Assembly (NCBI GenBank): GCA_964187785.1
Contig: OZ076409.1
Span: 41,046,001 to 41,110,000, forward strand
Origin: Amphiscolops sp. MND2022
Lineage: Eukaryota
DNA length: 64,000 bases
Direction of reading: 5' to 3'
Positions 4,584 through 63,894 of the stretch are shown in pieces. The translations under genes and the position numbers were made by a program. Under the pieces are notes generated by a model. That model worked only from the letters and a program-made list of their open reading frames with translations, did not search any database and was not told the DNA's origin. Position 1 is the first letter of the stretch, and every line of letters begins with the position of its first letter.

Positions 4584-4789
4584 AAATCGAGTGGAAGCAT
4601 TATAATTTTTTACGAGTGAATTTTCTGATGAGATATTCAATCTCTGATGATATTCAATTTGTGATGAGATATTCAATGAGACTATATATAGTCTCATTGA
4701 ATATCTCATCACAAATTGAATATCATCAGAGATTGAATATCTCATCAGAGAATTCACTCGTAAAAAATTATAATGCTTCCACTCGATTT
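4584..4789. repeat. 206-bp loopless palindrome (one mismatch) with internal TGATGAGATATTCAA sub-repeats
   Basis: Centre GACTATA|TATAGTC at 4686/4687; arms pair out to 4584/4789. The ORF track gives nearly the same peptide on both strands. Confidence 0.95.
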
Positions 4790-13800: not shown

Positions 13801-14639
13801 ATCTTCATCGAAGTCTGAAGGTTTCATCGAAATATGGAGTAGGAATCATTCAGATCGTTGAAGAGTCTCCTTTGCCAATCTATTTTGCAGACAACCGAGG
13901 TCACAAATCAGTAAGGTTCGCATTGACAGGTTTGTGGCCACCTCGTGGGCACACCATTGTTTTGGAGACGTAATTTGGTTGAAAAGTAATTAGTGGCTGC
14001 TCTACATGTAGCAGCATTTCTCTGGGTCTAGCAAATTTGGAAAACAATTACAGTAAAAAAATGTTTTGTTATCCAGTTATCTCCTCCTCGTTGATTTTTG
14101 TGTATCATGCCTCTAAAAGTTGGTTATCTGAGCAGTAAAGATATAGGTCAGAACGAAATTAAATAACACCGAACGGATTCCGTTTGAAATGCGTTTGATG
14201 TTAGTATTTTTGGCTGTGGATCAATTGGAACCGAATTATCGCTGATAGTATTTGGAACTCTATCCGCTAGGATAATGTATTGGGTATTCGCAATGGTAGT
14301 CCGTCCTCAAATCAATACATTTCACTAAAATTTAGATCAAAGTGCCCTATTTTCTTCAAAACCAAAAAAGTTTGAAGTTTTTTATTTGAAGTTTTTCGAT
14401 TGAGACAATGAAAGCTGCTAAGCAATTAAATCATTAGGTCTCCCAGGCAATATGTTGTGATGGTCACAAGACAAAAGCGCCCCAGTCAAAAGCGCCCAAA
14501 ATATAAAATCAAAAGCACCCCAGTCATCAAAGGCTACATGACATTTGCTGACCTTTTCCACCACTCACTTTAAGTTCCGCACTCCAATTGAATAATTATG
14601 ATTTTTTCATGTTAAAACATTGTATTGACTATCCTAGTA

Positions 14640-16098
14640 GAAACTACTTGAACTTTTTTTACGTTTTTCTAGGTTACCAAGCTAATTTTTCAGTATTTTA
14701 TATAATTCTCAAGGAGACTTCCATGCATTGAAATTTCACTGATTCAATTGAATTTTATCAAGCTGCCTAAAAGATGCATCCTAAAGTTGGCGGCAATTCC
14801 AAGACAAGACGTTTTGAAAGTTTCATTACGAAGCAATTCTAATTTTGAAAGCAGCTCTGACCTCAATAATTGTACCGCGATTTCAATGCAAATAAACTTC
14901 AGTCATATTATAAGCTTCAAAGTAGCGTCATATTCAGCGTGCTATTTGACTAACAGTGATTACATAAGGTACTTACTTGAGAAACTTACGCGTGAAAACA
15001 AAGTGATCGAGGCGGCGAAGAAGTGGAATTGTTATCAGTTTTAAGTGAACTAGTGGGAGCTGCTTTGTAATCTATGAGCTCTTTTAGTATTTTCTATGTT
15101 TATCATTGCATTCAGAAAGCATGCATGGATGCAACATGGAAAACGTTCCGGCAGGTTCAACTGGCAATTTAGGTCGTTTTCAATTGGAATTTATTATGTG
15201 TGAAAATTTCAAAATTGGCACTAGCAGTGAATCATTATTTTGTTGTTTGAACACCGTCAATTAGATTCAGTTAGAGGCAATGAAATCAACTCACAAATTA
15301 GCGAACGCTCAGTGTTGGGGCGCTTATGACTGTAAACGGGTGTGATACATGTACTCATCCTTGGATTGAGCTTAGTGACGATGGGGAGGAAAAATTTCAA
15401 CCCTGCTGGTTGTATTTACAAGTTTTTTCCTTTCAGGTATATCACTGATTAGTTGTAAAACTTAGTCATGTATTCGGCGCTTTTCGGATTAAAAAATCTA
15501 CTATGGCAGTCCCTTTTTGAAACCAGCGAAAGACTTCTATAAGCTGAGCTATTCTATTACAAGAAGCAACTACGTAGCTGTAATTTAGTTATACCTGACT
15601 GCCACTTGGCCTAGAGGATGAAAAATTTCGGGACCATGCATGGAAACATTTTGCAGGATATCAATGCATCCTCCACTATTGGAATTAAAACTGAAAACAT
15701 TTCCACTTCTTCACCGCAGCGATCACTTTGTTTTCACGCGTAAGTTTCTCAAGTAGGTACCTTATGTAATCACTGTTAGTCAAATAGCACGCTGAATATG
15801 ACGCTACTTTGAAGCTTGTAGTGTGACTGAAGTTTATTCGCATTGCAATCGCGGTAAAATTGATGACGGTCTCAGCTGCTTTCAAAATTAGAACGTCGCC
15901 CTAATGAAACCTGCAAAACTTTGCGGCGCAGAATTGCCGCCAAATTTAGGATGCATTTTATAGGCAGCTTGATAAAGTTAAATCGAATCAGTGAAGTTTT
16001 AATGCATGGACGTTTCTTTGAGAATTTAATAATATCATCAAAAATTAGCTTGATAATCTACAAAATCATGCAAAACGTTCAAGCAGTTTAAACCAGGG
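14640..16098. repeat. Inverted pair of a dispersed ~500-bp repeat (about 14640-15150 plus, 15640-16098 minus)
   Basis: ORFs 14748+ and 15685- share SFKVASYSACYLTNSDYIRYLLEKLTRENKVI. Further partial copies lie near 8230-8500, 18570-18990, 43340-43510 and 44790-45250. Confidence 0.8.
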
Positions 16099-16535
16099 TA
16101 ACGCGGTTTTCCTGAGCTCTGAGAAGCAAGAGTGCATGGGTTCGATCACTGAACCGATTTTTCATTGCTTGCAAAAGTTGAGTAGAAACCATTGGTTTCC
16201 AGTTTTTCAGCACTAGGCCGGTTTCCTCAGATTTTTTTTCAAATCTGAACCACTGCCTTCAATTTTCAGCAGAAACAAAAATATGCGAGCATAGATGACT
16301 TTTTAGGTATTTCGGCACTATGCGACTTAACGATGTTTCCAGTTGGGGAAAAGGCGGTTTTCAAGTATTATGCGAATCCTTTCGGGTATTTTTCAGCATT
16401 GTAAAGTTGATAAAATTTCCTCAATTGTGTTACTTTGCATATTTAAAAAACTTTGTTTTTCTGAACCTTGAGCGGGCAGCGACTAGGGCCATTCCCTGCT
16501 TGTTTCAATTGCAATTTACTCAAAAAATTTTTCAG

Positions 16536-18164: not shown

Positions 18165-18991
18165 GCAGGACTTGCAAATCTGTGACGTTATTGATACTAA
18201 ATGATATAACCGAATGCCTACTTGGATAATATTTTGGACAATGTTTCTTGTTGGACGGAGCAAAATCCAAAAACCAACCCAAACCCCCCAAGGTACTCCT
18301 TGTTTCTTATTCCCCTGGAAACGATAACGACTTTTTTCTTCGAAAACAATTTGCAAGAATGAAAGCATTTGATATGGTTATAAATTCTTGAAGGATTGTC
18401 TCTACAGTTGTTTTGACACATCCATCGAAATAAGACCCTGATTTTCAGTCGGCGCATTTTAGTTTTAGTGACTTTTAGAGACTTTTAGAGTTTCTAGTTT
18501 TTTCACAGCATGCAGGGTAATTTCTCATAAAACGTAGAAAATTCAGCAAGATTCCAGCGGTAAATCTTAACGTTCTACAACTTTTTGTAGGTTACCAAGC
18601 TAAATTTTTATGATTTTATAAAATGCTCAAGAAAATTTCCATGCAATAAAATTTCACTGATTTAATTTATTTTCATCAAGCTGCCTATGAAATGCATCCT
18701 AAATTTGGCGGCAATTCGGAGCCCCGAAGTTTTATAGGTTCCATTAGGAGAGACCTCAGTTAATAGTACGACAATTTCAGCGCAAATGAACTTCAGTCAC
18801 ATTATGCGTTTCAAAGTAGCGCCATATTGAGCGTGATATTTGACTAATGGTGATTGCATAAGGTACTTACATAAGTTACTTACATGGAAGCTGCGTTGTA
18901 ATTCTACAAAATTTCTCCAAGCAGGTTCTCAGAATTTTCCGATTTTTTAAAAAAAATGCCTTGCGTGCATGGAAGCAGAATGAAAAACTTC

Positions 18992-20648
18992 TTTTACGTC
19001 TGCAAGGTAAATTAACAAAAACACTTACCAAGCTTTACGACGGCCTGGTTGTCAAATGGCGGACAATTCTAAAACTACTTTGCCCAGGAAAGGCACTTGC
19101 AAAATCCACTACACACAATAATTTCGAGATGTCCTTCCTCTTCAATCTCCGGACAATATTTATTGTAAAGTATCTTGCCTTTTAGGATATAGGTGATTCC
19201 ACTCAATCCGTCTGAGTTCAAATGAACGTTATCCTTTTTAGGTGTTTCTTGCCAAACACTTGCCCGGAAATTCCTCTGAATTTCCAGCCTTCTTGACAAG
19301 AAGCAAGTAAAGAATTAACTTCTTTTGCTTGGAGTGGTTGAGAGTTGCGTAAAGGTATACCAAGTACGAAAACCTTTTTAGCTTTGGTAAATAAAGGATT
19401 TGCAAGATCAGATATCTGTCGAACCAAGTTTTTTGTCGTAGTGGCAAATAGGTTGTTACCGCCTATAAATAGGACGATGATATCATAAAGATTCTTTTTG
19501 GGTATAAAATTGTAAACGTGCTCTATTTTTTCTCCAGGCAGTGATAAAACTCTAAAGTTAGCAATATCAAGCCCTTTTCCTTGGCTATCAGAAATTAACA
19601 AATTTCTGGTTTTTGATACTTTGAGTAGATGATATCGCATCTATCTCGATATGAAAAATCAGCCAAAATTACTTTGAATAAATTTCGGAAGTCGGTGAAG
19701 CAATTACTGCATCTTTGACTTTGCACTTATTCTGTTTCACAAACATAAAGTAGCTTTGGAGCTCTAAATTGTGATTATAGGAATCAACTTAGCTGTCTCG
19801 ATGAGGGGTAGCGTTGTTGATCTGCTAAACCAAACGATAAGTCCAAGTCCTTGCGTCCACGATAACTTTCTCAAGCAAAAATATCGCAAACATATGCAAT
19901 ATAATAAATTGACGTTGGAATTTCGAAACAATATAATATCACTTGTTCAACTCCAAAAAGCTCTTCAATAGCCAGCGTTAACTGAATTAATTGTACGAGA
20001 AACTTCCGAGCTTCCACTTTCTTCAATACTTGAGTAGCAAAGTCGACTGATTTGGATCTCTACTTGGATGCTGTTGTTTCTTAGTAGGAGTTAACTCTGG
20101 TTACTTTAACATACAGGAAATACCTAATGGTGGATGTTTGTGGTTTAGTTTACCATCACCATACAAGCGCCTTGATATATAGAATAAGCAGAAACAAACT
20201 ATTTAGCTGGGCTGGAGGTATACACCAAAACATGTAAAATTATAAATAAAAAGCATACATTTAAGCAAGAATAAGGCATAGATTTTCACGTGTTATTTGC
20301 TGTTAAATAATCAGCGAAGTTCACAAACAGTCCTCATGGGTCCTACGGACACTTATGTAGCCCAAATATGGAGTTCATAACAAGTTAAATACGATAAACA
20401 AAGATTAAAATCCAAATTTACAGTAATTTTGGAAAAAGAATCAGAAATGGGGCCTAGAACACGAAAAGAAAAATTTTTCTCTTCAATTTTCACTTTTTTG
20501 GCTGGATAGCTTCTAGGGGTCAAATAATTGTGATTGGTTGAAAACTAGCGCTCAAATACACTTATACACAATTTAACAGCACTTTTAGTTAGGCTATATC
20601 GACCTATTTTTTCGCTAAGATTTTTGAATTTCGTTTGAGGCGCCAACA
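18992..20648 (-). mobile_element. Solo LTR of a Bel/Pao family (1657 bp), related to the LTRs at 54931 and 62744
   Basis: Minus strand begins TGTTGGCGCCTCAAA and ends CTTGCAGACGTAAAA, like the Bel/Pao LTRs. Long collinear similarity over about 19670-20420. 5-bp TSD ACTTC at 18987-18991 and 20649-20653. Confidence 0.92.
19075..19640 (-). CDS. SGNH/GDSL-type hydrolase ORF inside the solo LTR (one frameshift in an A-run near 19235)
   Basis: Motifs in the expected order: LLISDSQG (block I), SLPG (II), LFIGGNN (III), and after a 1-nt shift KKDNVHLN (block V, DxxH). About 188 aa, ending CSGFCKCLSWAK. Confidence 0.8.
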
Positions 20649-21474
20649 ACTTCCCTGCAAGTTCGACTAGGGTTGTGGATCTACCATGCATTTTCCAATA
20701 CCGTATGACTGCAATTAAATTATCACAAACAAAAATATTTCCCACTTCGTTCCCACAAACACACGATCAAGTTCTCAATTAATCATCTGATATAATCAAC
20801 GCTTCTCAAATAGCACGCCGAAGATGACGCTAGGTTTCAGTTTGTAACTTGACTGAAGTTGGTTTGCACTAAAAGGGCGGCAAAATGGCTAACTACATAA
20901 ACAAAACTGCAGAACTTCGTTGCTTCAGATCGCCAAAACTTTGATGAATCTTTCAAGCAGCTAATAAAAGTCGAATACAAGAAAGAAAAATTACAGTAAC
21001 TTAAACAATGACAGTCACCCTGAGAAGACCACTTTTACAAGTTTTTCAAATTTCACAAGGTGGAAATTTGAGCTTAGAATTTAGCTGATGTCGAGCTGTT
21101 CATCTTTTCAGATTAAATGAAACGGATGGCATTTATTCTTTTCGGATCATCTCTTTCACTGTTTTTATGATTTTATTTTTTTCGGATTTTACTCTTTTTA
21201 TGATATAACAATATATAGTTAAATAAATTGAAATTACGTTTAAAATTCAGATTTAGCGTTTTTTGCCTCTTTGCAGGCCGAGACTGGTGTTTAGAACCCA
21301 GCTACTACCAATACTGCTTTTTGAGCCTTTTGCATTTTCGCCAGTTTTGGCCGTTAAAGGCTTGTTTTATACTTCTGAATGAGAATATCAATATTTCACG
21401 TCTGGAAGCGAAAATCGTCTCGAAAAGCCATTATTTTTAACGCAATTTCTCTCTATGAGCAAGTTTTAACCTTT

Positions 21475-22393: not shown

Positions 22394-22644
22394 TGCGACA
22401 ATCGATGTTGTAAGAGATATTGTTATGTCGACATCAATTGCTTTATTGGACCAAAAATTTGAGCGCAAACGATGTCGATATAATGATTTTTGAACCTTGG
22501 TTCTCGTATATCAACCCCCGCGCGAGCTTAGGGAGGAATAAGGAAAATGGTCCAATATTTTTCTATTCGAAAAACGTTTGAAAATTTTTATTCAAACTTT
22601 AATGCTGCAAAAATTGACTGGATTGACTGGTAAAATTTAGGCAG

Positions 22645-24386
22645 TGTCGTAAGCATTAGCGTCGACTACACCATCTTTTCGGCGATTACAATTAGGCTTA
22701 CTAGCTGAACTGTCTTTAGGGTTAGTATTTTGCAGTCCTTCAGAATTTGCTTCCGGTCTCTCAGACGGAACGTCCCATCTATTCTGAGTCAAGTATCCCG
22801 ATCCGGCACTTAGAGCAGATTGAATCTGAGGCAATACCTGATTGCTAATTGCGTCGCTAATCGCCTTTTGAATCTGGGAATTGACACTACACATTATATC
22901 ATCTAGTTCTCTCGACAGCCTCGAGTTCAACTCGCTTGACAATTTGTTAATCTCAGCACTAGAATTACCTCCTGTTGAAATCTGGCCATAATCGGCATTA
23001 TTACTAGGACCTGTGTCCCTTATGGCTGAGTACCTGTTTTCACCATTATTCTCTAATTTGTCTGCAGAAGTACTGCCAGGCCTTCTGCCAAAATTGCTGC
23101 TGACACTTTCATCTCTCTCATTTCTATTGAAATGGTTTTCCCCTAACATAATATCAAGGTTTTCAATGTCAGACTGCATTTCTATTCCTCTTGACTTCCT
23201 AGCCTTTTTCTGTCTTCTTGTAGTAGGCATTAAGAATTCGAGGTTGAATAATTTATTGGTGATCTAAGTTTTACAATCTATAAGAGCAAAACAAACTGAG
23301 TGAGAGTATCATAAAGAAAAATGTGTCCACCTCTCGGAACAGGTAGGTATATATACTTCCGAGAGAATGGAATTTACATATTTTGATATAATACCCGCAA
23401 TTTACAAATTCCTTAAGTCACGAGGTTAAGGCACAACACTGGTTAAAATGAGGCGGTTAGCACCTTATCAAAGAACTCTAGGAATTCATACTTGTTAGGG
23501 TCACGAAGTTATATCCTTCCATTCGGAAACATCAACAATATTACTACATATCATCATAGTTGAGTGGCATCGGCAACAAACATCAAACAAATAATCATAA
23601 CGCAACTATCTAAAGAATGTCCATCACGGAATGCTGCCACGTGCCTGCGAATGTCGGCCGTTGCAACAAACGAGTAGCTTTAGCGTAAATCACGAAACAA
23701 AACACAACATGTCCTAAATCGGCCATTGGACTTTAATTCATTCAGAGCGAATAGCCTAGTTAGTCCAAAAGACTGGTACTAAGAATTGGGCTGGTATGGG
23801 GGTACTAATTATTTCAAACAGCGTAAAGGCACTAATTATTAACTTCAGGTGTAAATAGAAAGCTTACATGACTATTGAGCACTACAACATTATTAATACA
23901 ATAAGCTACAACAACGATTAAAGAAATAGCCTAATCCGGCCATCTGCCTAGTATTCCAACTAATTTAATGCACCATTAGGACAAACGGCCATATCCGGCC
24001 AATTTATTAAAGCAGTATAGCATCATGAAATACTTGAATATGATTGGTTGGTACATTAAGCTCAAGTGACGCTCTCGGACTGAAAGCTACGTACACTCGA
24101 ACTCGTTTCCTTTAAGCCGTTTAGTAGCTTGCGTTGAACTACAATTTATACTGAGCATCGTTCTTTTACAACTTGCAACTTCACTTGTCTAATGTATTAT
24201 TAGCAGACTAATACGCATTGTATCATAATAAAATTGTAATTGATCTAGGCAAACATAAATTTTGGGAGTGAGTTTTTAGAGTTTAGCGTAAACCTGTTCA
24301 AAATGTTGGTAGGGTTCCGGGAATTATCTCTTGACTGGCTGCTGAAGTCGTTATTAAAGTGCCATCACAGGCGGCAGCCTGCGACA
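22645..24386 (-). repeat. 3' LTR of the Gypsy element
   Basis: Near-identical to 36969-38710 (about nine substitutions seen by eye). Contains the duplicated gag N-terminus (ORF 22637..23230). Confidence 0.97.
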
Positions 24387-25082
24387 CTGCGGGTGTTATG
24401 AATAGAAAAGAGCCGGCATTCAGTCCGTTCTCGTAGGCCTCTCTCCTGATTCTCGTTATGTAATCTGGTTCTCCTCGTGGTTTAGATCTCTCACATACCA
24501 GTCCACTTTTTCCTTTTTGATTGCCTCCACTGACCTGCCGCAGACCATACAGCCAGAATACAGCTTCGTACTGACGTTTTCATAGGGTCTTGTATTCTGC
24601 ACATGATAAGAGGCGTGAAAACCCCCCATTGCTGGCTGCATAATAGGAGTGTCTGAGCTAGGCCCCCTCTCGTGTTCAGGGGGTGACATTGGTGTGTCTG
24701 GGATTGGCAACAAGGTTTTGCAGATTTCTATGCGCAATTTTCCTGCTTTTTTCGGCGGAGCGTAACACATTTCTTTGTCGAAATACCTGTGGTCCAATTT
24801 TGGGGTAATATCGGTTCGTACTTGAGCCGAACTTGGCCCAGCTTCTAGTTCGTCTTCCACGGGTTCGTCCACAGTCATGATCCTGCCTGCTACTAGCATG
24901 GGACTTGACGTGACTTCTCTTTCGATCCTTGCCACGAGCTGCTCTGTATCCGTGGAGCAGTCTGTTTCCCAGTCAGATGATTCGTCTTCGTCACTAGATA
25001 TGTAGATGACGGATCTTTCGGAGTCATCAGAGTCCGATTCTTCTAGGCCAAACAGTTTCCTTGAGAGGTTAAATTTGCTCAT
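24298..25082 (-). CDS. Gypsy accessory ORF3: acidic N-terminus with SIM-like motif and a CxxC; one apparent frameshift near 24490; ends inside the 3' LTR
   Basis: MSKFNLSRKLFGLEESDSDDSERSVIYISSDEDESSDW...CMVCG...VDWYV. An alternative frame continues RSKPRGEPDYITRIRREAYENGLNAGSFLFITPAVSQAAAC...PTF to TGA at 24300-24298. No signal peptide or transmembrane segment, so not a typical env. Confidence 0.7.
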
Positions 25083-25976
25083 TATAATTTTCTTGGCAAT
25101 TTTCGAAGCTAGCTGAGTCAACAGTTTGTCGATGAAATATGAGATAGAATGAATATATCAATTTTAGGAGATTAGCCGAGTTCGGCCTTTTTCCGACAAT
25201 CCGTTTTGGCGGAAGAATTCCTCGGTTGATTCTCCCTATCCGACGTAAACATTTCTGAATGGAATTCCATAATTAGTCGGCTATCTTTGATGATTCAATG
25301 TTTACCCCTCATCAGCAACACCGCTTGGAGAGGTGTGAATAACACTCAAGTTGTTAAAACCAACTTCATGATTTTCAAGTGGGTAATTAACAGGTCGCCT
25401 GAAGGTAATTAGCGGAGCGCGCCGTAACTTCTTCTTAACATGGCGTTAACCAATCAGATTCTTCCGTAGATAAATTGAAAAATTAATAAATAAAATGGCG
25501 GAAAATAATAATTCCGAATATTCCAAAATGGCGAATTTCTAACTAAGGGTAAATAAGGGCAACTGAACAAAACGGCAAAACAACACGGGGCAAACGGCCA
25601 TAACCGGCCTCTAATTAAATAAGCTGTAAATAACAAAGATCTTTGTACACTTCGCTGGCAGACTCCATGTACAGAATAAATATGTAGATAATCCATAATA
25701 TTAGTCTGGTAATAATCTTCAGCCACGAACTCCAACTTTCTAATTCATTATATTTATTTCCTGATTCAATTCCAATTCCATTTGAATTCCGTTTATTCTC
25801 CATTTGTATTCTATTTGGAATTTCCTGATCAGCGATTATCTCGATCTATCTCCAGCTTCGACGCTGACTCTCCGGAGTACTGCGGATTCCCCTTTTACGT
25901 CATAGCCGATCCTAGTCTGTTCCCTCATCAACTCTATCCAGATCAGGATCGATTCCAGAAAGGCGCCCCTTGCAGA

Positions 25977-28900
25977 ATGTCTTCAAATACAGGTTGGTTT
26001 GAATTTTCATTTTGAACAAACTCAACTTGATCAGGGTTAATTTGTTCACAAGATGCTTCCTGTTTCCACTAATGAGCACATGATAACTCATTTCATTCAA
26101 GTTTTCAAGATACTTCCGGAAGTTTTCTAATGCGGTAAAATGGATTTCTTTCAAGGAAGCTTACCGCCAAATTTCATTCTCTTCTGTTTAGATAATCAGA
26201 ATACTGATGAACGTCAATCCAGAACCAACGCCGCACTTGTGAATCTTTCTGAGCCCTCTCAAAGTTCGATTCCTATTCCTGTTTTAAGAGCTACTCCGAA
26301 TCCTGTTCCTTCTCCGCCTCCATTTCCTCCAATCAGAGCTGTTCACACCCAAGCTCCACAGATGGCTGCCGATTCCCCTTTCAGCAGTGGGAGTAATGTT
26401 GACGTCACGGCTTACGCGGATGAGGTAGTCCAGCGAATGGAAGTCTCACAGGAGCCCATTGACACTAACCTCGTTAATCCCACTGAGGAACGGTCCTTTA
26501 CGGCTCAAGATCAAGATACCTTAAATGCGAGCCAAATCCCCGAATTTGTGAGAACCAGCACTCCAACTCTACCTGATCGGTCCGGAGCAGAGGAGGTCAG
26601 CCTCTCGTTACTTGAATCCACACTGTCAGTGGCACCACAGACACAACCTGGCTTCCCTGAACTACAACTTGCCCAGATTCAGACTCATGAGACACCTGTG
26701 GTTTCCTTCTTGCAAACCGACGAGGAAGCCTCGTCTTCCGTGCATGAGCCTCCTCCACTTCCCGGAGGAACCGGACAGCTCAAAACCCCAGGGGACCACA
26801 GTGATACCAATCACACTATGGAAACTACTAGCCAGTCTGAAATCCCTCCTTATACGCTACCATCCCTTTTGGCGCGGAGTCAGCGTCGGAAGGGTGTGAA
26901 GATTCAAGGTCGGAAGCACATGATCCAGGACCACCAGGGACGTCCAAGTTCGTCCGTCAACCACAAGAGGAAGTTTTGCGAGATCTGTCAGGGCGAAGCA
27001 GGGCTACCCTGAAACAGTATTTTGAGACCGACGATCCCTACACCTTCCCAGTTGGGCAGAGGGTCGTAGCCTTCACGGAGCCACAAGTCTACCATCTGCT
27101 TCGAGTCCTGACTGATGAAGCCATAAACATGACTTGTACAACCATGGAAAGGATGGTAATTGGAGCTGTCAAAGGGACACCAGTGACTGTCCCATCACAC
27201 GCCGAGAAATTTCGAACGCGGGCCCGGACTCCCACCCCAGGACCTAATCAATCAGCTGAGTCTGGTTCCGATGGATTCTCAGCTGAACTTAGCTCTGGGC
27301 CTGGTCTCCAACTTGACTTGAGTACACTTCAGGATGTAACCGATTTCCCCTATCTATCTTGAAGATAGCGATAACTCCACGGAAAAGGCCCTGATTGATC
27401 AGGTTTATAGTAACATTGTTCCCGAGAGCCTCTCCCCAGTGGCACAACAAAAACAGCCATTAGATTCGTCAGGGGAAGGGGCTGAAACAGCAGAAAAGAG
27501 TAGCCTCGACGTCACCTTATCCGAGGTCCGTGATCGGCTCCCTGACCGAAAGTCCCGTCAAGGGATAACAATGACTAAGAAGGGCAAATCCAAGAGGATT
27601 CCAAGACGAGGGGTACCAATGCGCGAGGAGATCTTCTCTAAGATTGGGTGGACTAGGTCCTTCATTTCCGGCCCGGCTGATCCTCTGCATAACCCTCACA
27701 TGGTGTGGTGCCACATGTGCAAAATAATTTCAGCATCAAGACCAAGGGCACTGTGGAGATCCTGCGTCATCACAGGACGGAAAAACACCTCCGCCGTGAC
27801 CAAAGATGGCGGTATGAACATCTCAAGACCATTGATGATGTGACCGGGAAGGTCCAGCACAGAGTTCGCGGGAGGGATGGCAAAATCCTTAACAAGATTG
27901 ACCTCGCACATGAGCTTCCCAAGTTCATTGACGCGGAGCTTGTTGACGTTGGCGTGAGACATCCCTTCTACGAGGACTACTTAAAAGGACACGCCTTTGC
28001 TCCAGTTACCCCCCAAACGCGGTTGCAGACCCAAATTTGTCTCTTGGGAGACTTCGTCCAGGACTCAGGCAACCTAACCATCCTCCGTAGATTGTGGGCA
28101 AGGGCAGGGAGTTATACTGGATTCCAGACAGCTTTCCAGGATTTTGACTGGAGCGAAAATCACATCATGGTAAGTTCACCCGTTTATTCTCTTGTAAGGG
28201 TATACGTAGTGTAAGGGCGACTTAGCTGGAAATGAGATCACACAATCATCCAGATTTGTTCCTTTTCAGGCCATTTTCCAACACATCTTTAACTGCATGA
28301 TGGAGGACGTGGCCGAACAGGTCGTCGCTTCCCAACACTTTGGGATTGAATTCGAGAGGAGAGGAGCTAACCGATTCATGTCTCTTCGATACTGGAAGGG
28401 CGCAAAACTTTGCCGTATCTTCATCTGCCGAAGTAGTCTCGCTACCGTAGGGCTCACTGAAGAATTGGGTTCTCTGTCTCGGCTATTGTCTGTCATATCA
28501 ACTGCTCCCGACGTAGTCGCGATTTCAGGATGTGCCGTCGACCTCATAAGGACAGTGGACCAACATCCTTCCTATCCACGTGGGGTTCAGAGCTGCTTCC
28601 GCTTCGAGTCACTTGACTTGAGGACCTTAATGCACAAGATGAACTACAGTGTCTTTGGGCATATAGACATGTTTTCCGTCCTCCAAATGCTTCTGGTCTC
28701 GCTTGGAGGTTGTCTAACTGAGGACTGGGTCGCGGAGTCAGCTGAACTTGTCCGGGTAAGTCTACTTTGTGACTCTAATTTGCACAGCACCGGTGACGGG
28801 GGGCTGGTAGTCAATGACGGTTAGGACTTCAATCATATGAGCTACTTTATTTAGGCCATTACGACCTGTAAGCTGGAAGTAGCCAAAGTACCTGATTTGT

Positions 28901-30419
28901 GTCGCGATCTGTTGAAAAGGTGGAAGTCGGTCCTCCGCTATCTCACAATACACTCGCAGCGACAGGAAAACCAGGGGGTCCACAACAAGGTTATAACCCA
29001 CGAAAATATCTGTCTCTTTTCGGAGAGGGTCCCAATGACCGTTCTCTCTTACCGACATAGGTAGGGTTATTGTATCATGTGCACATCATGTGTTTCCACA
29101 GGTCCAGAGCTTCGAGTGGTCCCTTATTATGGACAACTTCTTCGCTGTCAAGTTGGAGTTGTTTCAACGTTTGGTCAGCGTTTGTAAGTATTTCTAGCTT
29201 GATAAAGTCACTTCGGTCTGTTGCCCTTCTAGGCACCTTTAATTCTAATGTTTTAGACGTCACCAGTTTCGTCATCAGTTTGAGTCAGAGGCGAGATGCT
29301 ACCTTCTTTCTCTGTGGGGAGGTATGTAAAAACATCAACCGCCTTTGCTTTCGTATTTATCAGCCCGATACAGTACCCCTGGAAAGTGCTTGGTTCCTGC
29401 TGATGGATTTCCGGCTCAGTCAGGGCAAACTCATGAGTGACGAAGATTTCCTAGTGCGTCTCAAAATTGCCAGCAAGGTGACCACTGCGAGCAACCTGAA
29501 GGCAGCCGGACTTCATTTCAACAAGAAGTCAAGCAAGGCAGCCATCAATAAGACCGCTGAAAGTGCGAAGTCAGATTTCGTGGGAAGCGCAAGGGATTTC
29601 ATCAAGTTCCTGTTATAAGGGGTGCTCCAGCATACCGAGCTCGGATCCGATCTCATCAAAAGATTGGCTGCATTTGACCCGCACATCTTGTTAAGGAGGC
29701 CCGTGGAAGTTGCCTTAAGGCATTTTGATCGCTTGCATTCCACATTTCAGTTGCGTTCTTGGGTTTCGGCGTCCAACGAATCAGTTTGCCGGGACGAATA
29801 TGTTGCCTTGTTGGACTACCTCCGAGCCAATCATTCCTCTGAGTTCAGCTCAGCCAGTAATCCTCCTGACCTCATTGACTTCTTCATGGATCTGGAGTTC
29901 CTCCAAACTCGCGAACACCTTTGTTATTTATTCAAATTGAGCTGCCTCTGTATCACTTCCGTAAATACCGAGTACCCCTCAGTTTCCTTGGGGAGAATCG
30001 ACACAAAGGGGCTCCAATCTCGTTTGGTAGACGTCATCTTGCCTTGCCAAAGTTTTATGTCGACAGTGCCTGATTCCTTGGTTGCCTGCTGCACTAAGTC
30101 TCGACTTGAGAAATTCTCCGAATTGTCCTCATCATTTGGACAATCTGCTTTTGCCCCTGATTACGACCCTTGGATTTACGTAGACGGTTTTGGGCGTTCT
30201 GCGATTTACAAGACTCTTGTCTCTTCCTATCGCTCTGTTCTCTCTGGGTCAGAGTTCCATTTTAGAAGTCCTGGTTTTGCTGATACTTCTTCTGTGCGTG
30301 ATGCTCCTGCCGTCAAGCTGCCTAGTGATAGTAAGCGTAGGCGGATGGAAAGAAGTTGTTCTCGTAGTAGGGCCTCATCTGTCGCCGAAGAATCCCCTGC
30401 TGATGTCTCTAAAAACTAA
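25977..30419 (+). CDS. Antisense, intron-containing cargo gene of the Gypsy element (about 1270 aa): S/P/T/E-rich N-terminus, BED-like zinc finger, hAT-transposase-like body; disrupted in this copy
   Basis: GT-AG introns 25993-26191, 28170-28269, 28756-28854, 28990-29101 and 29184-29256 (and possibly in-frame 29322-29363) join the plus-strand ORFs in phase. Zinc finger WCHMCKNNFSIKTKGTVEILRHHRTEKH. 1-nt indels near 26975, 27360 and 27722, and an in-frame TAA at 29616. Confidence 0.8.
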
Positions 30420-30634
30420 TTGTACATATGTATTTATGTACCTACAAACTGTAAACTTTGTTGATTTTCTGTTTTGTTCCTTTTGATTTCTTGATGTCTT
30501 GATCCCTCATTTATTCCTTTTGTATGGGATCCTTTGAAATGCCCCAGTATTTATTCAAAAGAAGTTCTCAGAGGGGCTTGAAAAGATAAAAGATAGCAGA
30601 AAAGAACTCCCATTTTCGGGAAAAATTCAATTCT

Positions 30635-45579: not shown

Positions 45580-45779
45580 AATGATGAAAAATTGATCAAA
45601 ATAGTAATAAAATCAAGATATTAAATCATGATATAAAATCTTGATGAGGACCATACTCCTCAGGTTTCTGCCGTGGAGCGCTCCACGGCAGAAACCTGAG
45701 GAGTATGGTCCTCATCAAGATTTTATATCATGATTTAATATCTTGATTTTATTACTATTTTGATCAATTTTTCATCATT
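45580..45779. repeat. 200-bp perfect palindrome
   Basis: Centre GGAGC|GCTCC at 45679/45680; 100-bp arms. Confidence 0.95.
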
Positions 45780-54930: not shown

Positions 54931-56081
54931 TGTTGGCGCCTCAAAATTTGTTCCGAAAAATTGAAGGAAAAATAAGTCGAGTTAGTCAATTTCAAAATGC
55001 TGTAAAAATGTGTAGAATTGAATTTGAGTGCTAGTTTTCGCCCAATCGACATATTTCGACCCAAATGAGAGATTTAAACTATAAAATCGAAAATCGAAGT
55101 CAAAAAATTTTCAATTCCCCTCTTACGTCCCATTTTGGATTCCTTTTTCAAAGTCAGTGTATATTTGGACTTTATTCTTTGTTTATCGTATTTAACTTGA
55201 TATGAACTCCATATTTGGGCTACGTGGGTGTCTCTAGGACCCATGAGGACTATTTGTCAACTTCACTGAGTATTTCACAGCAAATAACATGTGTAAATGT
55301 ATGCCTTAATCTTGCTTAAATGTATGTCTTTTATATATACTTTTACATATTTTGGTGTATACCTCAAGCCCAGTTAAATAGTTTGTTTCTGTTTATTCTA
55401 TATATCGAAGCGCTTGTATGGTGATGGTAAATTTAACCACAAACATCCGCCATTTGGTATTTCCTGTATGCTAAAGTAACCAGAGTTAACTCCTACTAAG
55501 ACACACAGCAACCAAGTAGAGATTCGAATCAGTCGACTTTGCTACTCAAGTATTGAAGAAAGTGAAAGCTTGGAAGTTTCTCGTACAATTAATTCAGTTA
55601 ACTCTGGCTATTGAAGAGCTTTTTGGAGTTGAGCAAGTGATATTATATTGTTTCGAAATTCCAACGTCAATTTATTATATTGCATATGGTTGCGACATTT
55701 TTGCTTGAGAAAGTTATCGTGGACACAAGGATTGGGATCGATCAATTGGTTTAGCAGATCAACAGAAGCTACTCGTCATCAGGACAGCTAAGTTGATTCC
55801 TATAGTTACAGTTTAAAGCTACTTTATGTTTGCGAAACAGAATGAGTGCAAAGTCAAAGATGCAGTAATTGCTTCACCGACTTCCGAAACTTATTCAAAG
55901 TAACGCAAGCAAAAATTTTCATTGAAATTAGTTGCGAATTACCTATTGAAGGTTCTTGATAAGTGGTTTTTGCAAGTGCCTTTCCTGCATATATCAGATA
56001 TAGAAATTGTCCGCAAGTTGTCAACCAAGCCGTCGTAAAGCTTGGTAAGTGTTTCTGTTAGTTTACCTTGCAGACGCAAAA
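54931..56081 (+). repeat. 5' LTR of the Bel/Pao element
   Basis: Runs TGTTGGCGCC...AGACGCAAAA; highly similar to 62744-63894. Confidence 0.95.
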
Positions 56082-56084
56082 TTT

Positions 56085-56102
56085 TGGTGCCGCGACCCGG
56101 GA
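56085..56102 (+). promoter_or_regulatory. Primer-binding site (tRNA-Phe- or His-like)
   Basis: TGGTGCCGCGACCCGGGA, 3 nt after the LTR. Confidence 0.75.
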
Positions 56103-56178
56103 AGGCACTCTGCAAATTTAATCCACTTGAGCTTTGTGAAACTTGCCTATCTGACAGCTGTGAAAAAAGCAAAAGACA

Positions 56179-59100
56179 ATGGCTGAAGGTGGGCTTTATG
56201 ATCCTCAATTCATTACCGTGTCAAAAAATGGAACTGAAAGAAAAGTCCCATTTTCGGATTCGTTAAAAAACTCATCCACATTGAGCGACTGGATCAATCA
56301 TGAAAAACGGGTAGTTGACATTGTCTCGACCATTCGAAATATGGAACTTGACTTGCGAAATATCAAATCAAGCAATCCAGTTCTTTGGATCGATAAGGGC
56401 AATTTTTGTTTAAAGTTTTGGGCGTCTAAGGATGAATTGAAGAAAGAATTCGAACTGTATCTTCCAATGTTGAAAGAAAAGAACCAAAGTGATCGCAGAA
56501 CGGCTCTTAGAAAACTAAATTTGGAATTCGAAGAAAGATTCACAGAATGGTGTGAAGACCTCCGAAATCTTGGATTTATCGGTAGCCTTCCCCAGAAGTT
56601 AAAAGATGAAAGAGATTTGCTGAAGTTTTGTAGGTCCGTGGATCAATTTTTCGAAACGACACGAAACTTGTCCAGTGAACTAGATACGATTAACAATTTG
56701 ATGAAACAAGAAGAAAGGTCAAGTAAAGTGAAGTCATCCATACAAAAACTTCAAGAATTGAAAACTAAGCTGGACAAGGTTTACGAAAGTGTGTGTAGCC
56801 AGCTAAAAACAGAATCAATTGGGGAGTTGTCAATGTTTGAAAGGAATGTTAGAGATTTCAGTGTGAAAATACAACAAGCGACGACAGATTCATTGTACTA
56901 TGTCGATCGTTTGAATGAAGTAAAAGATCATTGGAACCAACCAATAACCTCAGATGGGGTGGGGGAAACTACATCAATGAAAGACATTCCAGTGACATCG
57001 ACTGGCGATGAAAGTAGTCAAACTCGGATTTTGCGCCAAAGTGCAAACGATACACTAGAAAAGAGTCTGAAATTGCTAAGAGATGTTAACCAATCCACAG
57101 CGTTTGATAAGAGTGAGAACCGTACGGAAGTTGCTCCTCGGCAAACAGGTTCAGCGACTTTCAGTACAGTGAAACGACGTTCATTAGTGGACTTCTCACC
57201 TTCAAGAACCTGCCGAAAAGTGATACCTGCAAACGGTTGGGCTTAAGAGTGGGTTCCGAATTGTCAAGGGTTAGTGAACTACGACGCTTAGAGATGCATG
57301 CTAAAGTGCTAGAACAAAAGCCTCAGTTAGAAATTGAGAAAAGGCAGCGAGAACTGAAAATGGAGAAAACGAAAAAGCAAATGGAAATGGAATTGGAGAT
57401 GCATCAGAAGCTCCTAGATCTACAAGCGGAAACTGAAATTGCTGAAATGGAAAGCAGAAAAGCGCTTGAGCAGCACGAAATGAGACTACAAATAGAAGAA
57501 GCTGAGGGGTCCGTTCGTGCTTTGTCGATTTGTCCCAGCTTGATGTCTCTCACCCTTGGAGAAGACAAAAACAGTGACATCAGAAGCTGGTTGAAACGAA
57601 GTGATGAAAATCTCGAAAAGGGCTTTCCACAACCGAAGGAATCTAGTAGAGAGGTAGAAATCAAAAGTGGATCAAGAAGACTACCTCAGAGATTTCCAAA
57701 ACACTCTCCTCAAAAAAATCAATTGCTGACTTCGCAACCTCATAGCAGAGGTACCAGTAAGTCACCTCCGAGAAAAAGCACTGCAATCAATTTTCCAAAA
57801 ACAAAACCTTCACTTCAGCAAGGCAATTACGAACCGAAGTCAAAACATGAATTCGCGAATCCCACTTTCAAAGTAGAAAATCCTTTTCCTTCCTTTACCC
57901 CAGCAGTACCTCTACAGCAACATGTCCATTTTGTTTGAACAAGTTTACCTAAGCTAAAATTATCTGAATTTCACGGAGATCCATTGGAATGGCCGTAATG
58001 GTCCAGCTTGTTTACAGCAACCATCCATAATGCACCAATCGATGACAATGCAAAAATGAGTCATTTGAAAACGATCGTTAAAGGTAAAGCCAAGGCGGCA
58101 ATTGCTGGTCTTGAGTACTCAGGAATCATGTATAGTGCTGCATGGAATGCTTTGGTTACCAATTTCGGACGTCCGCAAACAATTGTGAATGCGCAGATGA
58201 AGCAAATCCATCTGAATCCGTTTATCAAGTCGCATGACTCAGCAGCTATTATAAAGTATGCTCAGTTGATCACTACTTGTGTCAATGTATTGAAACAATT
58301 TGGTTTCACTGGAGATTTGTACTCAGAATCAGTCCTTAATTCAGCTTTGAGAAAGTTACCTCCTGAATTGAAAACAAAATGGTTTTTCCTTGCAAAAAGC
58401 AAAAGCTACTATAATGCAGATCTTTGCAAGTTTAGCGAGTGGCTAAATGATGTTGCCTATGTGCATGATGAAATGATGGTGCAATTCAAAACACCATTTG
58501 AGAAAAAAGCCACTGGATCAACCGAAAAGGTTAAGACTTCAACATTTGCTGCCAATGACCAAGGTAAACCAACATCAACTTCTATTAAGCAATGTCCATT
58601 AAAAGATGGCGAACATAAAATTTGGATGTGCAACAAATTCAAACAGCAAGCTGTCAACGAAAGATATGAAACGTTGAAAAAACTGAAACTATGTTTCTGT
58701 TGTCTTAATTCTCACCTGATTAAAGACTGCAAATCAGAACGTGTCTGCAATGTGAATGGTTGCACTAAGAAACACAACAGGCTTCTACACTCTGATGCGC
58801 AGAAAATAGATAAAGTCACATATGACAAGAAAACAGAAGACTCGGTGCCTCAAAGCAGGGCCGGCAGCTCTTCAATGATGTCGACAGGCAATAACGGTTT
58901 CTTACAACTGATTCCTATTTCGATAGGTAAAGAAAAACGATGCGTTGAAACCATTGCGCTCTGTGATACCGGATCCACTGTTTCGTTTATGGATCAAAGT
59001 TTGGTTGATCTTCTCAGGTTGAAAGGTAAAGAGTCCGTAATGTCCGTTGCTGGCATTCATGGTTTGTCTGATTTGAAAACGCAAATAGTAACAGCCAAAG

Positions 59101-62100
59101 TGGGTTCCAGCGAAGCAGAAACGGCTGGAGAGACTGTAACGTTCTGCAGTCACCCTAACCTAAATGTTGGTGAAAAAGACTATGACTTCAGAAAACTAAA
59201 AGAAGAGTACCAATATTTATCTGATCTGCCTAATATTAAAGTCTCAATGACTGATGTTAAAGTGATTTTCGGACAGCATGCTTATCATTTGATCAGGCCG
59301 CTGGAATACAAATCTGGCGAAAGAAATCAACCATGAGCAGTTAAAACAGCACTAGGTTGGACCATTAGCGGAGCCTTGCCAAAAAAGGAAACAAGTAACA
59401 TATCGGTTTCTTGCAACCTTTCAGTTGCACCCGACCCACTGGCAAATCAGATGAAAAAATGGTGGGACATGGAGACATACGCGTCAGTGTGTGATGTCTC
59501 TGGTCGATCCAAAGGAGAAAAGAGAGCACTGTCAATTTTAGAAAGAATAACAAAGCATAACGGTGAACGTTATGAAGTGGGTTTAATGTGGGCTGATGAC
59601 AATCCCGATCTGCCTAACAATTATTACTCAGCATATCAGCAGTTCTTGTCGATGGAAAAAAAGATTTGAGAAAGACCTTGAATTGAAAGAAGCTTACAAA
59701 GCTACCATTGAGAAGGACTTGGAAAACCATTTTATTCGAAAACTGGATCAGGAAGAAGTTTCCAGTACAGAGAATGATATGCAATGGTACTTACCTCATC
59801 ACCCAGTGAAACATCCACATAAGCCAGGCAAGGTCAGAGGAGTTTGTAATGCGGCTTCAAAGTTTAGATGCGTTTCGCTAAATGACAAACTTCTAAGTGG
59901 ACCTGATTTATTGCGCAACTTAGTGGGAATTGTTTCCAGGTTCAAAGAGCACCTGATAGCAATCACTGCCGATATAGAGTCAATGTTTTTACAAGTAGCA
60001 GTTCCGAAAGAAGAATGTAGAGTTCTACGTTTTCTTTGGCGAGATAAACCAGAAGATAACATTGCAATTTTCGAGTATAATAGGCATGTGTTCGGAGCAA
60101 AGAGTTCCCCAACGTGTGCCAATTATGGTTTCCAACAAGGCGGTAGAGATAACAAAAAGGAGTTTCCTGTAGCAGCCGCTACAATAGACAGAAACTTCTA
60201 TATGGACGACCTCGTCAAGAGTGTTGATACACCTCAAGAGGCCATTGAATGTTATCAACAGTTAGTGGAAACACTGAAGCGCAGTGGCTATACTTTAAAG
60301 AAATGGGTGAGCAATTGCCCTGAAGTGCTTGAAGTTATCCCCTCGGAAGACCATCTGGAATCTAATGAATTTACATTGAATGCGGATTCATCGCCCATCC
60401 TAGGTCTCGAATGGACCATAGATTCGGATAGTCTTCAAGTCTGCCGAGGACCAAACAAAGAATGTCCACAAGAAATAACGCAACGAGTGGTACTATCTTT
60501 TGTTTCATCGGTATTTGATCCCATGGGAATCTTCGCACCGTTTACCATGCGAATGAGAATGCTTTTGAAGAGGATTTGGATCCGTTTTGGTCAGTCGTGG
60601 GACGAAAATATCAATGAAGAAGATAAAAGAATATTCTTCGAGTGGGTACAAGAAATGCAGACAATTAAGCAGACATCTCTTTCCCGGAAGTATTTTTCCA
60701 ATATCCCCAAGAACGTGCAGTTACATATTTTCAGTGATGCCTCTTTGGAAGCAATGTGCATTGTTGCATATCTTCGAGGAGAACTCGAAGATGGCATCGA
60801 AGTGTCCTTTGTGTTGGGCAAATGCAGAATAGCTCCTATCAAACAGTTGTCTATTCCTCGTCTAGAGCTACAAGCAGCCTTGTATTCTGTGAGGTTGAGA
60901 AAGTTGATCATTCAAGAACACGATTTACCTATTAATGGTGTAACTCATTGGACAGATTCCGTTACCGTATTGCAATGGTTGAACTCCGCGGACAAAAAGC
61001 AGAATGTCTTTGTTGCCAATAGAGCAGCTGAAATTCTGGAAAACTCCTCCATTGACGAATGGAAACATATCCGAGGCGAGTTGAATCCATCTGACATTGG
61101 AACTCGTGGGATAACTATAGAAAAGTTATCTGAAAGCGAATGGTTAACCGGACCTTCTTGGTTGAAAGACCAGCCTGAGGATTGGCCGTTATCTTTGCCT
61201 CCAATTCACGTGAATTCTGATGATCATGCTGAAGTTGCACTAATTGCGAACACAAGTATGACTCAGGAGCCACCTGTTGATTGGAAAAAATTAGTAGTTT
61301 CTCGAAATGCGTCCGTGTTATCGCGTTTTGTTTGCGGTTGAAGTATAAAAGTCAATCTAAAGTTTTACTTGTTGAAGAATTGAATCGATCAGAGGATAGA
61401 GTTTTGAAAATGATTCAGAAAGAATCTTTCCCGGACCTTTTTGATGAGAAGGAAAGTTTCGGTAAAACTAAAAAAGGCGGAAATCTATCAAAATTTGCAC
61501 CCTTCTTTGATGAAAAAGGAGTTATCAGAATTAGGGGTCGCATCAAACATGCCAACTTGAGCTTCGAACAGCGTCATCCAGTATTGTTATCTACGAAACA
61601 CGACATGGTAATGACCATGTTGCGAGATCTACACTTCGAACACAATCATGAAGGTGTAGAGTATGTGAGAAGTGTTATTCAACAGAAATTTTGGATAATC
61701 GGGTTACGAAATGCTTTGAGGAGTGTTAAAACTAGTTGTGTATTCTGTCGCAAATTACGTGCACAGAATAAAACCCCGTTCATAGCCGACTTACCCCCAG
61801 AGAGACCTGATTATCAGTCATATCCGTTTACCAACGTTGTGGTGGATTATTTCGGTCCGTTTGAGGTGAAATTATTAGGAAGATCTATGAAACGTTGGTG
61901 CTGCTTATTTACATGTTTAACTACCAGAGCAGTACATATCGAAGTGGTTCGAAGTCTTGACACAGATTCTTGCTTGGTAGCTATCAACAGATTTATTGCT
62001 AGACGCGGCAAGCCGACTACTATCATCAGCGATAATGGTACTAACTTCGTTGGATCAGCAAGAGAGTTGAAGGAGTACATCAACTCATGGAATCAAGATC

Positions 62101-62777
62101 AAATAACGCCAGAGCTTGCTCAGAAGCACATTGTATGGAAGTTTAACCCTCCTGGCGCACCCCATTTTGGTGGTGTATGGGAGAGATTAGTTAGAAGTTG
62201 CAAAAAGGCAATGGTGGCTATATTGGGTAATCGATCTCTTACAGATGAAGTTTTATTGACAACTATGTGCTTAGTGGAACAAACATTAAATGCGCGTCCT
62301 ATTACTCCAGCAAGCGATGATCCTGAAGATCTTGAACCACTTACACCGAACCATTTTATTATTGGTCGAGCGAATGTTTGCATTCCCTTTATTCCAAACG
62401 CAGAGGTTTATGCTAACCAAAGAAAGATGTTCAGATCAAGCCAAGCTTATGCAGACATGATTTGGAACAGATGGGTGAACGAATACCTCATTTAGAACAA
62501 TGTAAGAGAACAATGGAAGGAGCCAGAGCCAAATATTCAAGTTGGAGATCTTGTTTGGCTGATAGAAGACAATGTTAGAAGGTCTCACTACAAGATGGCG
62601 CGAGTCATTGAAGTATTCCCTGGAAAAGATGGTATTGTGAGATCAGCACTAATCAAAACTGTCAATGGAACCCTGAAACGACCTGTGGTTAAACTGGCAC
62701 CACTTTTTGAAAAGCGTTTTCGCGCTGAAAACGGGGCCGGCATTGTTGGCGCCTCAAAATTTGTTCCGAAAAATTGA
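56179..62777 (+). pseudogene. Bel/Pao gag-pol polyprotein with several stops and frameshifts
   Basis: LPKLKLSEFHGDPLEWP (Bel/Pao gag), triple Cys/His knuckles (CPLKDGEH..C, CFCCLNSH..C, CNVNGCTKKH..LLH), LCDTGS protease, FYMDD RT, FSDAS/IPRLEL/WTDS RNase H, DYFGP/SDNGTNF/GGVWER integrase. Stops at 57938, about 57998, 59336 and 62495; frameshifts near 57240, 59665 and 61290. Confidence 0.93.
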
Positions 62778-63894
62778 AGGAAAAATAAGTCGAGTTAGTC
62801 AATTTTAAAATGCTGTAAAAATGTGTAGAATTGAATTCGAGTGCTAGTTTTCGCCCAATCGACATATTTTGACCCAAATGAGAGATTTAAACTATAAAAT
62901 CGAAAATCGAAGCCAAAAAATTTTCAATTCCCTTCTTACGTCCCATTTTGGATTCCTTTTTCAAAGTCAGTGTATATTTGGACTTTATTCTTTGTTTATC
63001 GTATTTAACTTGATATGAACTCCATATTTGGGCTACGTGGGTGTCTCTAGGACCCATGAGGACTATTTGTCAACTTCACTGAGTATTTCAAAGCAAATAA
63101 CATGTGTAAATGTATGCCTTAATCTTGCTTAAATGTATGCCTTTTATATATACTTTTACATATTTTGGTGTATACCTCAAGCCCAGTTAAATAGTTTGTT
63201 TCTGCTTATTCTATATGTCAAGGCGCTTGTATGGTGATGTTAAATTTAACCACAAACATCCGCCATTTGGTATTTCCTGTATGCTAAAGTAACCAGAGTT
63301 AACTCCTACTAAGACACACAGCAACCAAGTAGAGATTCAAATCAGTCGACTTTGCTACTCAAGTATTGAAGAAAGTGAAAGCTTGGAAGTTTCTCGTACA
63401 ACTAATTCAGTTAACTCTGGCTATTGAAGAGCTTTTTGGAGTTGAGCAAGTGATATTATATTGTTTCGAAGTTCCAACGTCAATTTATTATATTGCATAT
63501 GGTTGCGATATTTTTGCTTGAGAAAGTTATCGTGGACACATAGATTGGGATCGATCAATTGGTTTAGCAGATCAACAGAAGCTACTCGTCATCAGGACAG
63601 CTAAGTTGATTCCTATAGTTACAGTTTAAAGCTACTTTATGTTTGCGAAACAGAATGAGTGCAAAGTCAAAGATGCAGTAATTGCTTCACCGACTTCCGA
63701 AATTTATTCAAAGTAACGCAAGCAAAAATTCTCATTGAAATTAGTTGCGAATTACCTATTGAAGGTTCTTGATAAGTGTTTTTTGCAAGTGCCTTTCCTG
63801 GACATATCAGATATAGGAATTGTCCGCAAGTTGTCAACCAGGCCGTCGTAAAGCTTGGTAAGTGTTTCTGTTAGTTTACTTTGTAGACGCAAAA
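62744..63894 (+). repeat. 3' LTR of the Bel/Pao element
   Basis: Preceded by purine-rich GAAAACGGGGCCGG; direct repeat of 54931-56081. Confidence 0.95.

Follow-up and report, generated by a model that had tools for sequence, protein, structure and literature searches.

A conserved SGNH hydrolase gene within the long terminal repeats of a Bel/Pao retrotransposon family of Amphiscolops: a predicted esterase in a candidate leader position

Why would a retrotransposon carry an enzyme gene inside its long terminal repeat (LTR), and what would the enzyme do there? The question is raised by a 64,000-nucleotide stretch of the genome of Amphiscolops sp. MND2022 (contig OZ076409.1, positions 41,046,001 to 41,110,000; hereafter the window), in which a first-pass annotation, made from the letters alone, had described an open reading frame (ORF) for an SGNH hydrolase embedded in a solo LTR. 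According to the data presented here, we lean towards the reading, which as a whole has somewhat more than an even case, that this Bel/Pao LTR carries a conserved stand-alone SGNH gene as the first cistron of the element's leader, and that the product would be an active esterase acting in trans on a host substrate. The parts of this reading differ in strength and are taken up in turn.

The SGNH gene in the LTRs of the BEL-A family

The solo LTR and its surroundings contain the following features.

18987..18991, no strand: left copy of the target-site duplication (TSD), ACTTC
18992..20648, minus strand: solo LTR of Bel/Pao subfamily A1, 1657 bp, termini TG..AA, 96% identical to the LTR of the full element L031
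19000..19029, minus strand: candidate motifs resembling a splice donor and an acceptor, past the SGNH stop and before the LTR end
19075..19314, minus strand: second frame of the SGNH ORF, with block V (DNVH, 19233-19222), the cysteine tail (19113-19093) and the stop codon (19077-19075)
19218..19640, minus strand: first frame of the SGNH ORF, with a weak-context start codon (19640) and blocks I (SDSQ, 19592-19581), II (LPG, 19541-19533) and III (GGNN, 19463-19452)
19690..19717, minus strand: 28-nt block conserved between subfamilies, some 50-77 nt before the SGNH start, a candidate transcription start region
20649..20653, no strand: right copy of the TSD, ACTTC

The 5-bp duplication on either flank agrees with the first-pass description of a TSD-bounded solo LTR. 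TG..CA is the norm for LTR termini, which BEL-A, the family to which this LTR belongs, does not follow: the solo LTR starts with TGTT and ends with AAAA, and its TG..AA ends are set by the adjoining exact TSDs. AA instead of CA closes the LTRs throughout BEL-A (in the window, for example, at 18992-18995 and 56078-56081). The gene had been described as an ORF of about 188 codons with the SDS, PG, GGNN and DNVH blocks, a cysteine-containing tail and one lesion only, and so it is: SDSQ, LPG and GGNN share one frame, DNVH, the tail and the stop lie in another, a single break separates them, and unbroken natural copies of the same subfamily encode 188 amino acids. The window copy has a single internal ATG, at 19486. 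Programmed frameshifting was considered for this ORF and ruled out, as the sister copies are open in one frame. The splice-like motifs near the LTR end are present in subfamilies A1, A2, A3 and A5 and in a shorter LTR described below, and are not clear in A4.

A search of the genome gave 874 candidates, of which 150 were scored; the figures that follow rest on these 150, all of which match at E <= 2e-27. When two overlapping and the 17 lowest-scoring rows were excluded, the remaining 131 SGNH rows contained 28 same-strand pairs spaced 7.5-8.6 kb apart. Eleven loci were studied at full length, and ten of them are elements with the ORF in both LTRs, the other being a solo LTR; thus the full-length elements with a long LTR at both ends, which the first-pass annotation had proposed to look for, do exist. 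The LTR pairs of these ten elements are 95-99.9% identical, many elements being young, and six of the ten have full-length, ATG-started SGNH frames in both LTRs. The internal ORFs encode a DUF1759 gag, protease, reverse transcriptase (RT), Peptidase_A17, integrase and DUF5641, and the elements show direct LTRs, a primer-binding site, a purine tract and a 5-bp TSD, as expected of Bel/Pao. At least five subfamilies (A1-A5) can be told apart, with LTRs of 1266-1676 bp in which some 50-85 nt follow the SGNH stop. That the gene sits in both LTRs of BEL-A elements is virtually certain.

Comparison of the coding sequences, also proposed at the outset, gave ratios of nonsynonymous to synonymous substitution rates (dN/dS) of 0.06-0.24 in 13 of 15 pairs between subfamilies, the other two pairs being saturated; within subfamilies the ratio is noisy (0.2-3.9). 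The corresponding ratio of proportions of differences, pN/pS, was 0.10-0.50 in the true frame against 0.67-2.07 in a shifted-frame control. The gene is thus under purifying selection. These data bear on the simplest alternative, that the ORF is a neutral passenger or a LINE (long interspersed nuclear element) fragment inserted into one LTR, which would be in keeping with the broken window copy and with the presence of a related gene at the head of LINE families. The first-pass annotation had itself named confinement to this copy, as a secondary LINE insertion, as what would overturn its proposal. Since the gene is present in both LTRs of many elements, has the dN/dS values given above and has no TSD or tail of its own that could be seen, the passenger explanation was ruled out, and the weight left to it is negligible.

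Two further observations concern the history of these LTRs. Discordant identities between subfamilies in the 5' part of the LTR, the SGNH cassette and gag (L031, L032, L048) point to recombination; the U3/U5 boundary could not be located from the patterns of recombination among subfamilies. Moreover, at an A4 locus (L038:1186-1196) the first nucleotides of the primer-binding site recur as a 9-nt match some 70 nt before the SGNH start, possibly a relic of an older LTR end or a chance match.

Proposed position in the leader and translation

The ORF is almost free of ATG triplets. Six BEL-A SGNH ORFs contain 4 ATGs in 3507 nt, against 80 expected at the rate seen in pol, while the antisense count of CAT in the same six is normal. 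Among the rows compared, including relatives from other families described below, no internal in-frame methionine was found in any of the 15 with a 5'-placed gene, and 14 of these 15 have 0-2 out-of-frame ATGs (BEL-B has 4), against 2.4-8.6 obtained by codon shuffling. In a Bel family with the gene after pol (Bel-C) there is no AUG loss, the two counts of out-of-frame ATGs (9 and 6) being as expected, and six Helitron-type sister genes have 7-17 ATGs. The SGNH start has a pyrimidine at -3, a weak context, in 13 of 14 rows, and the gag start has a purine at -3 together with G at +4 in all four BEL-A rows available (A2-A5). The next ATG past the SGNH start is the gag start itself in A2, A4 and A5, 678-739 nt downstream; in A3 one ATG intervenes. 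A weak first AUG, a nearly AUG-free stretch and a strong downstream AUG form the sequence hallmark of leaky scanning. From the AUG depletion and the weak start context it is therefore very likely that the gene lies in the transcribed leader (R/U5) and is bypassed by leaky scanning, a judgement that rests on sequence patterns.

In the mechanism that we propose, transcription would start within the LTR, at a point before the weak SGNH AUG; part of the ribosomes would make the esterase, and the remainder would continue scanning for 680-770 nt until they meet the strong gag AUG. In this leader position the gene precedes the primer-binding site, so that reverse transcription would copy it into both LTRs, from which solo LTRs would inherit it. 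The first-pass annotation had suggested that the gene persists after solo-LTR formation. Its presence in the solo LTR is plain, and its survival there is probably a by-product of the first-cistron position.

A similar arrangement is found in rice tungro bacilliform virus, where the AUG-free ORFs I and II are leakily scanned over about 900 nt to the polyprotein, according to the part of that paper available to us (PMC5902531). As there, a long upstream ORF without internal AUG precedes a polyprotein; unlike that plant pararetrovirus, whose proteins are unrelated, BEL-A has a span of about 680-770 nt, and scanning is deduced from the sequence.

Genes can also lie in U3, as do sag of mouse mammary tumour virus and nef of human immunodeficiency virus, and the SGNH gene could by analogy be a U3 gene whose expression relies on a subgenomic RNA or on solo LTRs. 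The 50-85 nt that follow the stop could leave room for a short R-U5, and one Bel family carries the gene at its 3' end. However, the loss of out-of-frame AUGs across the ORF and the spacer would be pointless for a U3 gene, and it is not seen in the family with the gene at the 3' end, so that we regard this explanation as very unlikely and retain the leader position. A conserved AATAAA was not found in the BEL-A LTRs. The RNA data consist of low-depth contigs from three runs of one metatranscriptome sample (shares of 0.05-0.09), in which DNA contamination is possible. A GT..AG joint in one of these contigs was set aside, as it may come from a deleted genomic copy.

The predicted esterase

Sequence searches of the PDB with a fragment and with a profile gave no significant match, and Pfam gave none on a 140-amino-acid fragment; a fold search was needed. 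The structure model of a natural relative, P0017 (mean predicted local distance difference test score, pLDDT, 91.7), matches sialic acid esterase (Z 17.0, root-mean-square deviation (rmsd) 2.1, 156 aligned residues), platelet-activating factor acetylhydrolase (PAF-AH; Z 15.8, Foldseek E 3.3e-6), the ZfL2-1 esterase (PDB 4c1b; Foldseek E 3.2e-4) and the OSK domain of Oskar (PDB 5a4a; Z 12.4, rmsd 3.1, 155 aligned, 9% identity). The protein is thus modelled with the alpha/beta/alpha fold of SGNH hydrolases, and the absence of such a match, which the first-pass annotation had said would count against its proposal, was not observed. Pfam Lipase_GDSL is matched above its curated cut-off in Bel-C and Copia relatives, and an Atlas comparison led to GDSL clusters at 0.92-0.93.

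In 28 diverse aligned proteins the catalytic residues are nearly always kept: serine in 27, glycine in 26, asparagine in 28, aspartate in 27 and histidine in 28. The two tail cysteines are kept in 28 and 26 of the 28; the tail, barely within the coverage of the fold search, may bind zinc. In all carriers examined the gene is a stand-alone ORF of 188-211 amino acids with its own stop, and the proteins are basic (isoelectric point, pI, 8.7-10.1). No longer, fused SGNH relative was found, which is weak evidence, and no viral contig encoding a relative was found, the viral fold matches being generic SGNH domains. The product is probably an active esterase, as judged from its residues. The first-pass annotation had proposed an accessory enzyme or an RNA- or lipid-binding protein; the enzyme is favoured, and an inactive RNA-binding protein of the OSK type is disfavoured because the catalytic residues are kept. 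As far as the consulted part of PMC3905857 goes, the OSK domain is non-catalytic; our protein shares its fold but, unlike it, keeps S, G, N, D and H.

Sharing across element classes, loss in cis and possible targets

The gene is not confined to BEL-A. In Bel family B it is found downstream of the primer-binding site and ahead of gag, in Bel family C behind pol, and Bel family D has a more diverged member in the same position as family B. Two Gypsy families and one Copia family have it in front of gag. It also stands before ORF1 in three LINE families of the Amphiscolops genome and in two metagenome LINE contigs, and before a DNA transposase with an N-terminal SET domain and a Tnp2-like core (L131:3367-6663, minus strand, and L150). 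SGNH identity across classes is 33-53%, and RT segments of BEL-A4 give no significant alignment with those of LINE or Gypsy elements. The SGNH tree appears to reject grouping by element class: approximately unbiased (AU) tests reject monophyly of the Bel (p=0.003), LINE (p=0.001) and LTR carriers (p 0.002), and leave standing the BEL-A clade (p 0.47), which is also supported in a larger tree. The gene thus belongs to a cassette common to many element classes in this genome. A profile search recovered 747 cluster representatives at E <= 0.001, and as one that was tested has its best match in the Amphiscolops genome at only 40%, the family extends to other genomes, where its contexts are known from 4 metagenome loci. 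A tail-less sister SGNH clade that is not AUG-depleted lies upstream of Helitron RepHel ORFs (L188:2899-9998, L194:2922-9999).

Directly past the SGNH stop many carriers have one to three hairpins, and in Bel-C, Gypsy, Copia and LINE carriers two or three tandem hairpins share a common core.

L110:1098-1238: tandem hairpins after the SGNH stop
L112:997-1126: tandem hairpins after the SGNH stop
L106:1008-1101: tandem hairpins after the SGNH stop
L146:3147-3239: tandem hairpins after the SGNH stop
L132:465-558: tandem hairpins after the SGNH stop

A model built on 7 copies, which represent 4 families, found 72 matches, 59 of them at E<0.01. By their coordinates all 59 follow the stop of an SGNH gene; 57 belong to the families used for training, the other 2 to a LINE-like family that the model had not seen. 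Pairing in the inner helix is complete (100%), and 3 of its 6 pairs show two-sided changes, in a structure drawn from the same sequences; the hairpin has no Rfam match. Bel-D has three repeats of a different hairpin-like unit.

These hairpins would suit a protein that is mainly an RNA-binding regulator, OSK-like or Rev-like, which recognises them and exports, localises or protects the element RNA; their place after the stop, the two-sided changes, the OSK match and the conserved cysteine tail are all consistent with such a role. On the other hand, the model finds no match in BEL-A at E<1, its training covered four families, LINE2, LINE4, BEL-B and the DNA transposon escaped it, the hairpins could be read by host proteins, and the catalytic residues are kept. 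We therefore consider an RNA regulator improbable and continue with the esterase; as the hairpin was not found in BEL-A, it belongs to the wider cassette and not to the in-LTR gene.

The window also shows what happens when the gene is lost.

54931..56081, plus strand: 5' LTR of the short-LTR (SGNH-deleted) subfamily, 1151 bp
55932..56003, plus strand: remnants of the SGNH ORF across the deletion, its start (start codon lost) and its end (GFCKCLS)
56085..56102, plus strand: primer-binding-site-like sequence, common to all BEL-A subfamilies
56164..62495, plus strand: broken Bel/Pao gag-pol (DUF1759, RT, Peptidase_A17, integrase), 93-97% identical to the SGNH-carrying A3
62744..63894, plus strand: 3' LTR of the short-LTR element, 97.7% identical to the 5' LTR, TSD ACGGA

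A tRNA gene matching the primer-binding pattern was searched for and none was found. Both LTRs align at 86% to positions 1-980 and 1539-1657 of the solo LTR, which confirms the match on both sides that had been noted at first. The stretch of about 60 bp between the flanks had been taken as replacing most of the ORF, with only the GFCKCLS end kept. The deletion and the end remnant stand; the stretch is not foreign DNA, since it includes a decayed remnant of the ORF start without its start codon. The short LTR has lost about 500 bp, and the proposal that these LTRs are deletion derivatives is upheld by the close identity of their gag-pol to A3 and by the remnants of both ORF ends. The derivative has been successful: all 40 scored matches to the junction are 95-100% identical, and 12 of 13 parsed elements are full length, with LTRs of 1146-1152 bp that are 97.7-99.6% identical; gag-pol is broken in every full-length one parsed. 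In A4, two of eight elements carry an identical shortened (broken) SGNH frame in both LTRs. Since an SGNH-deleted subfamily has spread and these A4 elements are broken in both LTRs, the gene is dispensable in cis.

The same evidence bears on whether the protein, with placement and translation as above, could assist the element's own particle, either structurally or in membrane targeting, as proposed for the esterase of ZfL2-1 ORF1p with its membrane binding and single-turnover hydrolysis. In the part of PMC3905857 available, the ZfL2-1 esterase is active and binds acidic phospholipids, and the Amphiscolops proteins are basic and would come from the same RNA as Gag. Yet the same lineage stands ahead of a DNA transposase, which forms no such particle, the protein is stand-alone without a coiled-coil fusion, and SGNH-less derivatives spread. 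A particle partner thus seems unlikely, if less so than an RNA regulator. The esterase that we favour would instead be an active cytoplasmic enzyme, translated at a low level from the genomic RNA, with a lipid or an acylated protein of the host as its target in trans. Such a target, in defence or trafficking, is suggested because unrelated replication machineries keep the gene and SGNH-less derivatives spread; we hold a host substrate tentatively, at slightly under even weight. More weakly, the esterase may work as a shared good. It is also conceivable, though doubtful as a whole, that it is a swappable counter-defence or trafficking enzyme, a first cistron built for leaky scanning, often with hairpins, and exchanged among Bel/Pao, Gypsy, Copia, LINE and DNA transposons, whose action in trans would let SGNH-less cheaters spread; each BEL-A solo LTR would then be a potential stand-alone expression unit.

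It must be taken into account that several points weigh against this reading. The esterase activity and the substrate are predictions, and BEL-A matches to Pfam Lipase_GDSL are mostly below the curated cut-off. Short-LTR copies could rely on other helpers instead of SGNH in trans, the pooled AUG P-value is overstated because BEL-A subfamilies are not independent, and the RNA contigs carry no information on transcript start, poly(A) site, strand or translation. In addition, the DNA-transposon link comprises 2 copies, the AU groups were chosen with a first tree already at hand, few of the deep branches are resolved, and BEL-A, as said, has no match to the hairpin model.

Esterase ORFs in retroelements are known, and the first-pass statement that SGNH domains were not known as LTR-encoded genes needs refining: in bdelloid rotifers, Vesta LTR retrotransposons have a GDSL/SGNH ORF3 after pol, also present in Athena/Terminon elements and thus common to Penelope-like elements (PMC5408684, consulted in part, as were the papers cited below). 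Like Vesta, the elements described here are LTR retrotransposons with a stand-alone SGNH ORF that has intact catalytic residues and is of a type common to unrelated classes. Unlike Vesta, with its single ORF between pol and the 3' LTR, a placement shared only by Bel-C, the BEL-A gene occupies both LTRs, ahead of the primer-binding site, is depleted of AUG and has a cysteine tail; in Amphiscolops one lineage is present in Bel, Gypsy, Copia and LINE families and in a DNA transposon. In ZfL2-1, CR1 and RTEX ORF1p the esterase domain follows a coiled coil (PMC3905857; PDB 4c1b). The fold, the 5' position on the element RNA and the basic surface are shared with it, but here SGNH is a separate ORF, which in LINE carriers stands ahead of a distinct ORF1. 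SGNH ORFs also occur in Ngaro elements (PMC9210276), and the Helitron-borne texim is an SGNH hydrolase (PMC4021074). These too are accessory SGNH hydrolases on mobile DNA, and the Amphiscolops tail-less clade likewise precedes RepHel; unlike the BEL-A gene they are outside LTRs, and the portions of these two papers that we saw do not describe an AUG-free bicistronic design. In the literature searched, no Bel/Pao or in-LTR SGNH gene and no AUG-free design was found, although Repbase, subscription papers and supplements could hold one; thus no published counterpart was found for the placement in the LTR or for the breadth across classes.

The reason for which transposons retain esterases is an open question, and activity has been shown once, as far as the parts consulted tell (PMC3905857, PMC5408684). 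Here a 600-nt gene is kept ahead of gag in the likely leader of an animal LTR, and one enzyme lineage, found in five element types and at three positions, forms a natural experiment that includes both a matched subfamily without the gene and a control for the effect of position on translation. Sharing among many classes narrows the target to something common to all of them, and the proteins are small and soluble for assay.

Other elements were observed in the window. The solo LTR is nested in an inverted-repeat element (18569-18883 and 20772-20893) related to 14630-16100. An element at 46920-54563 has LTRs of 772 bp that are 99.2% identical, and the one long ORF scanned in it (48787-49779) has no Pfam match. 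A young 16-kb Gypsy element lies at 22645-38710 on the minus strand (LTRs 1742 bp, 99.5% identical, TSD GGCAG). Its interior holds about 6 kb of extra, GC-richer sequence (24400-30600) with several frames of 170-290 codons, mostly on the opposite strand and without Pfam matches. Its gag frame opens inside the LTR, so that about 200 gag codons are repeated in the 3' LTR (22640-23263), which makes it another family whose LTR contains coding sequence. Long palindromes are present elsewhere, at 43803-44509, 4580-4793 and 45580-45779.
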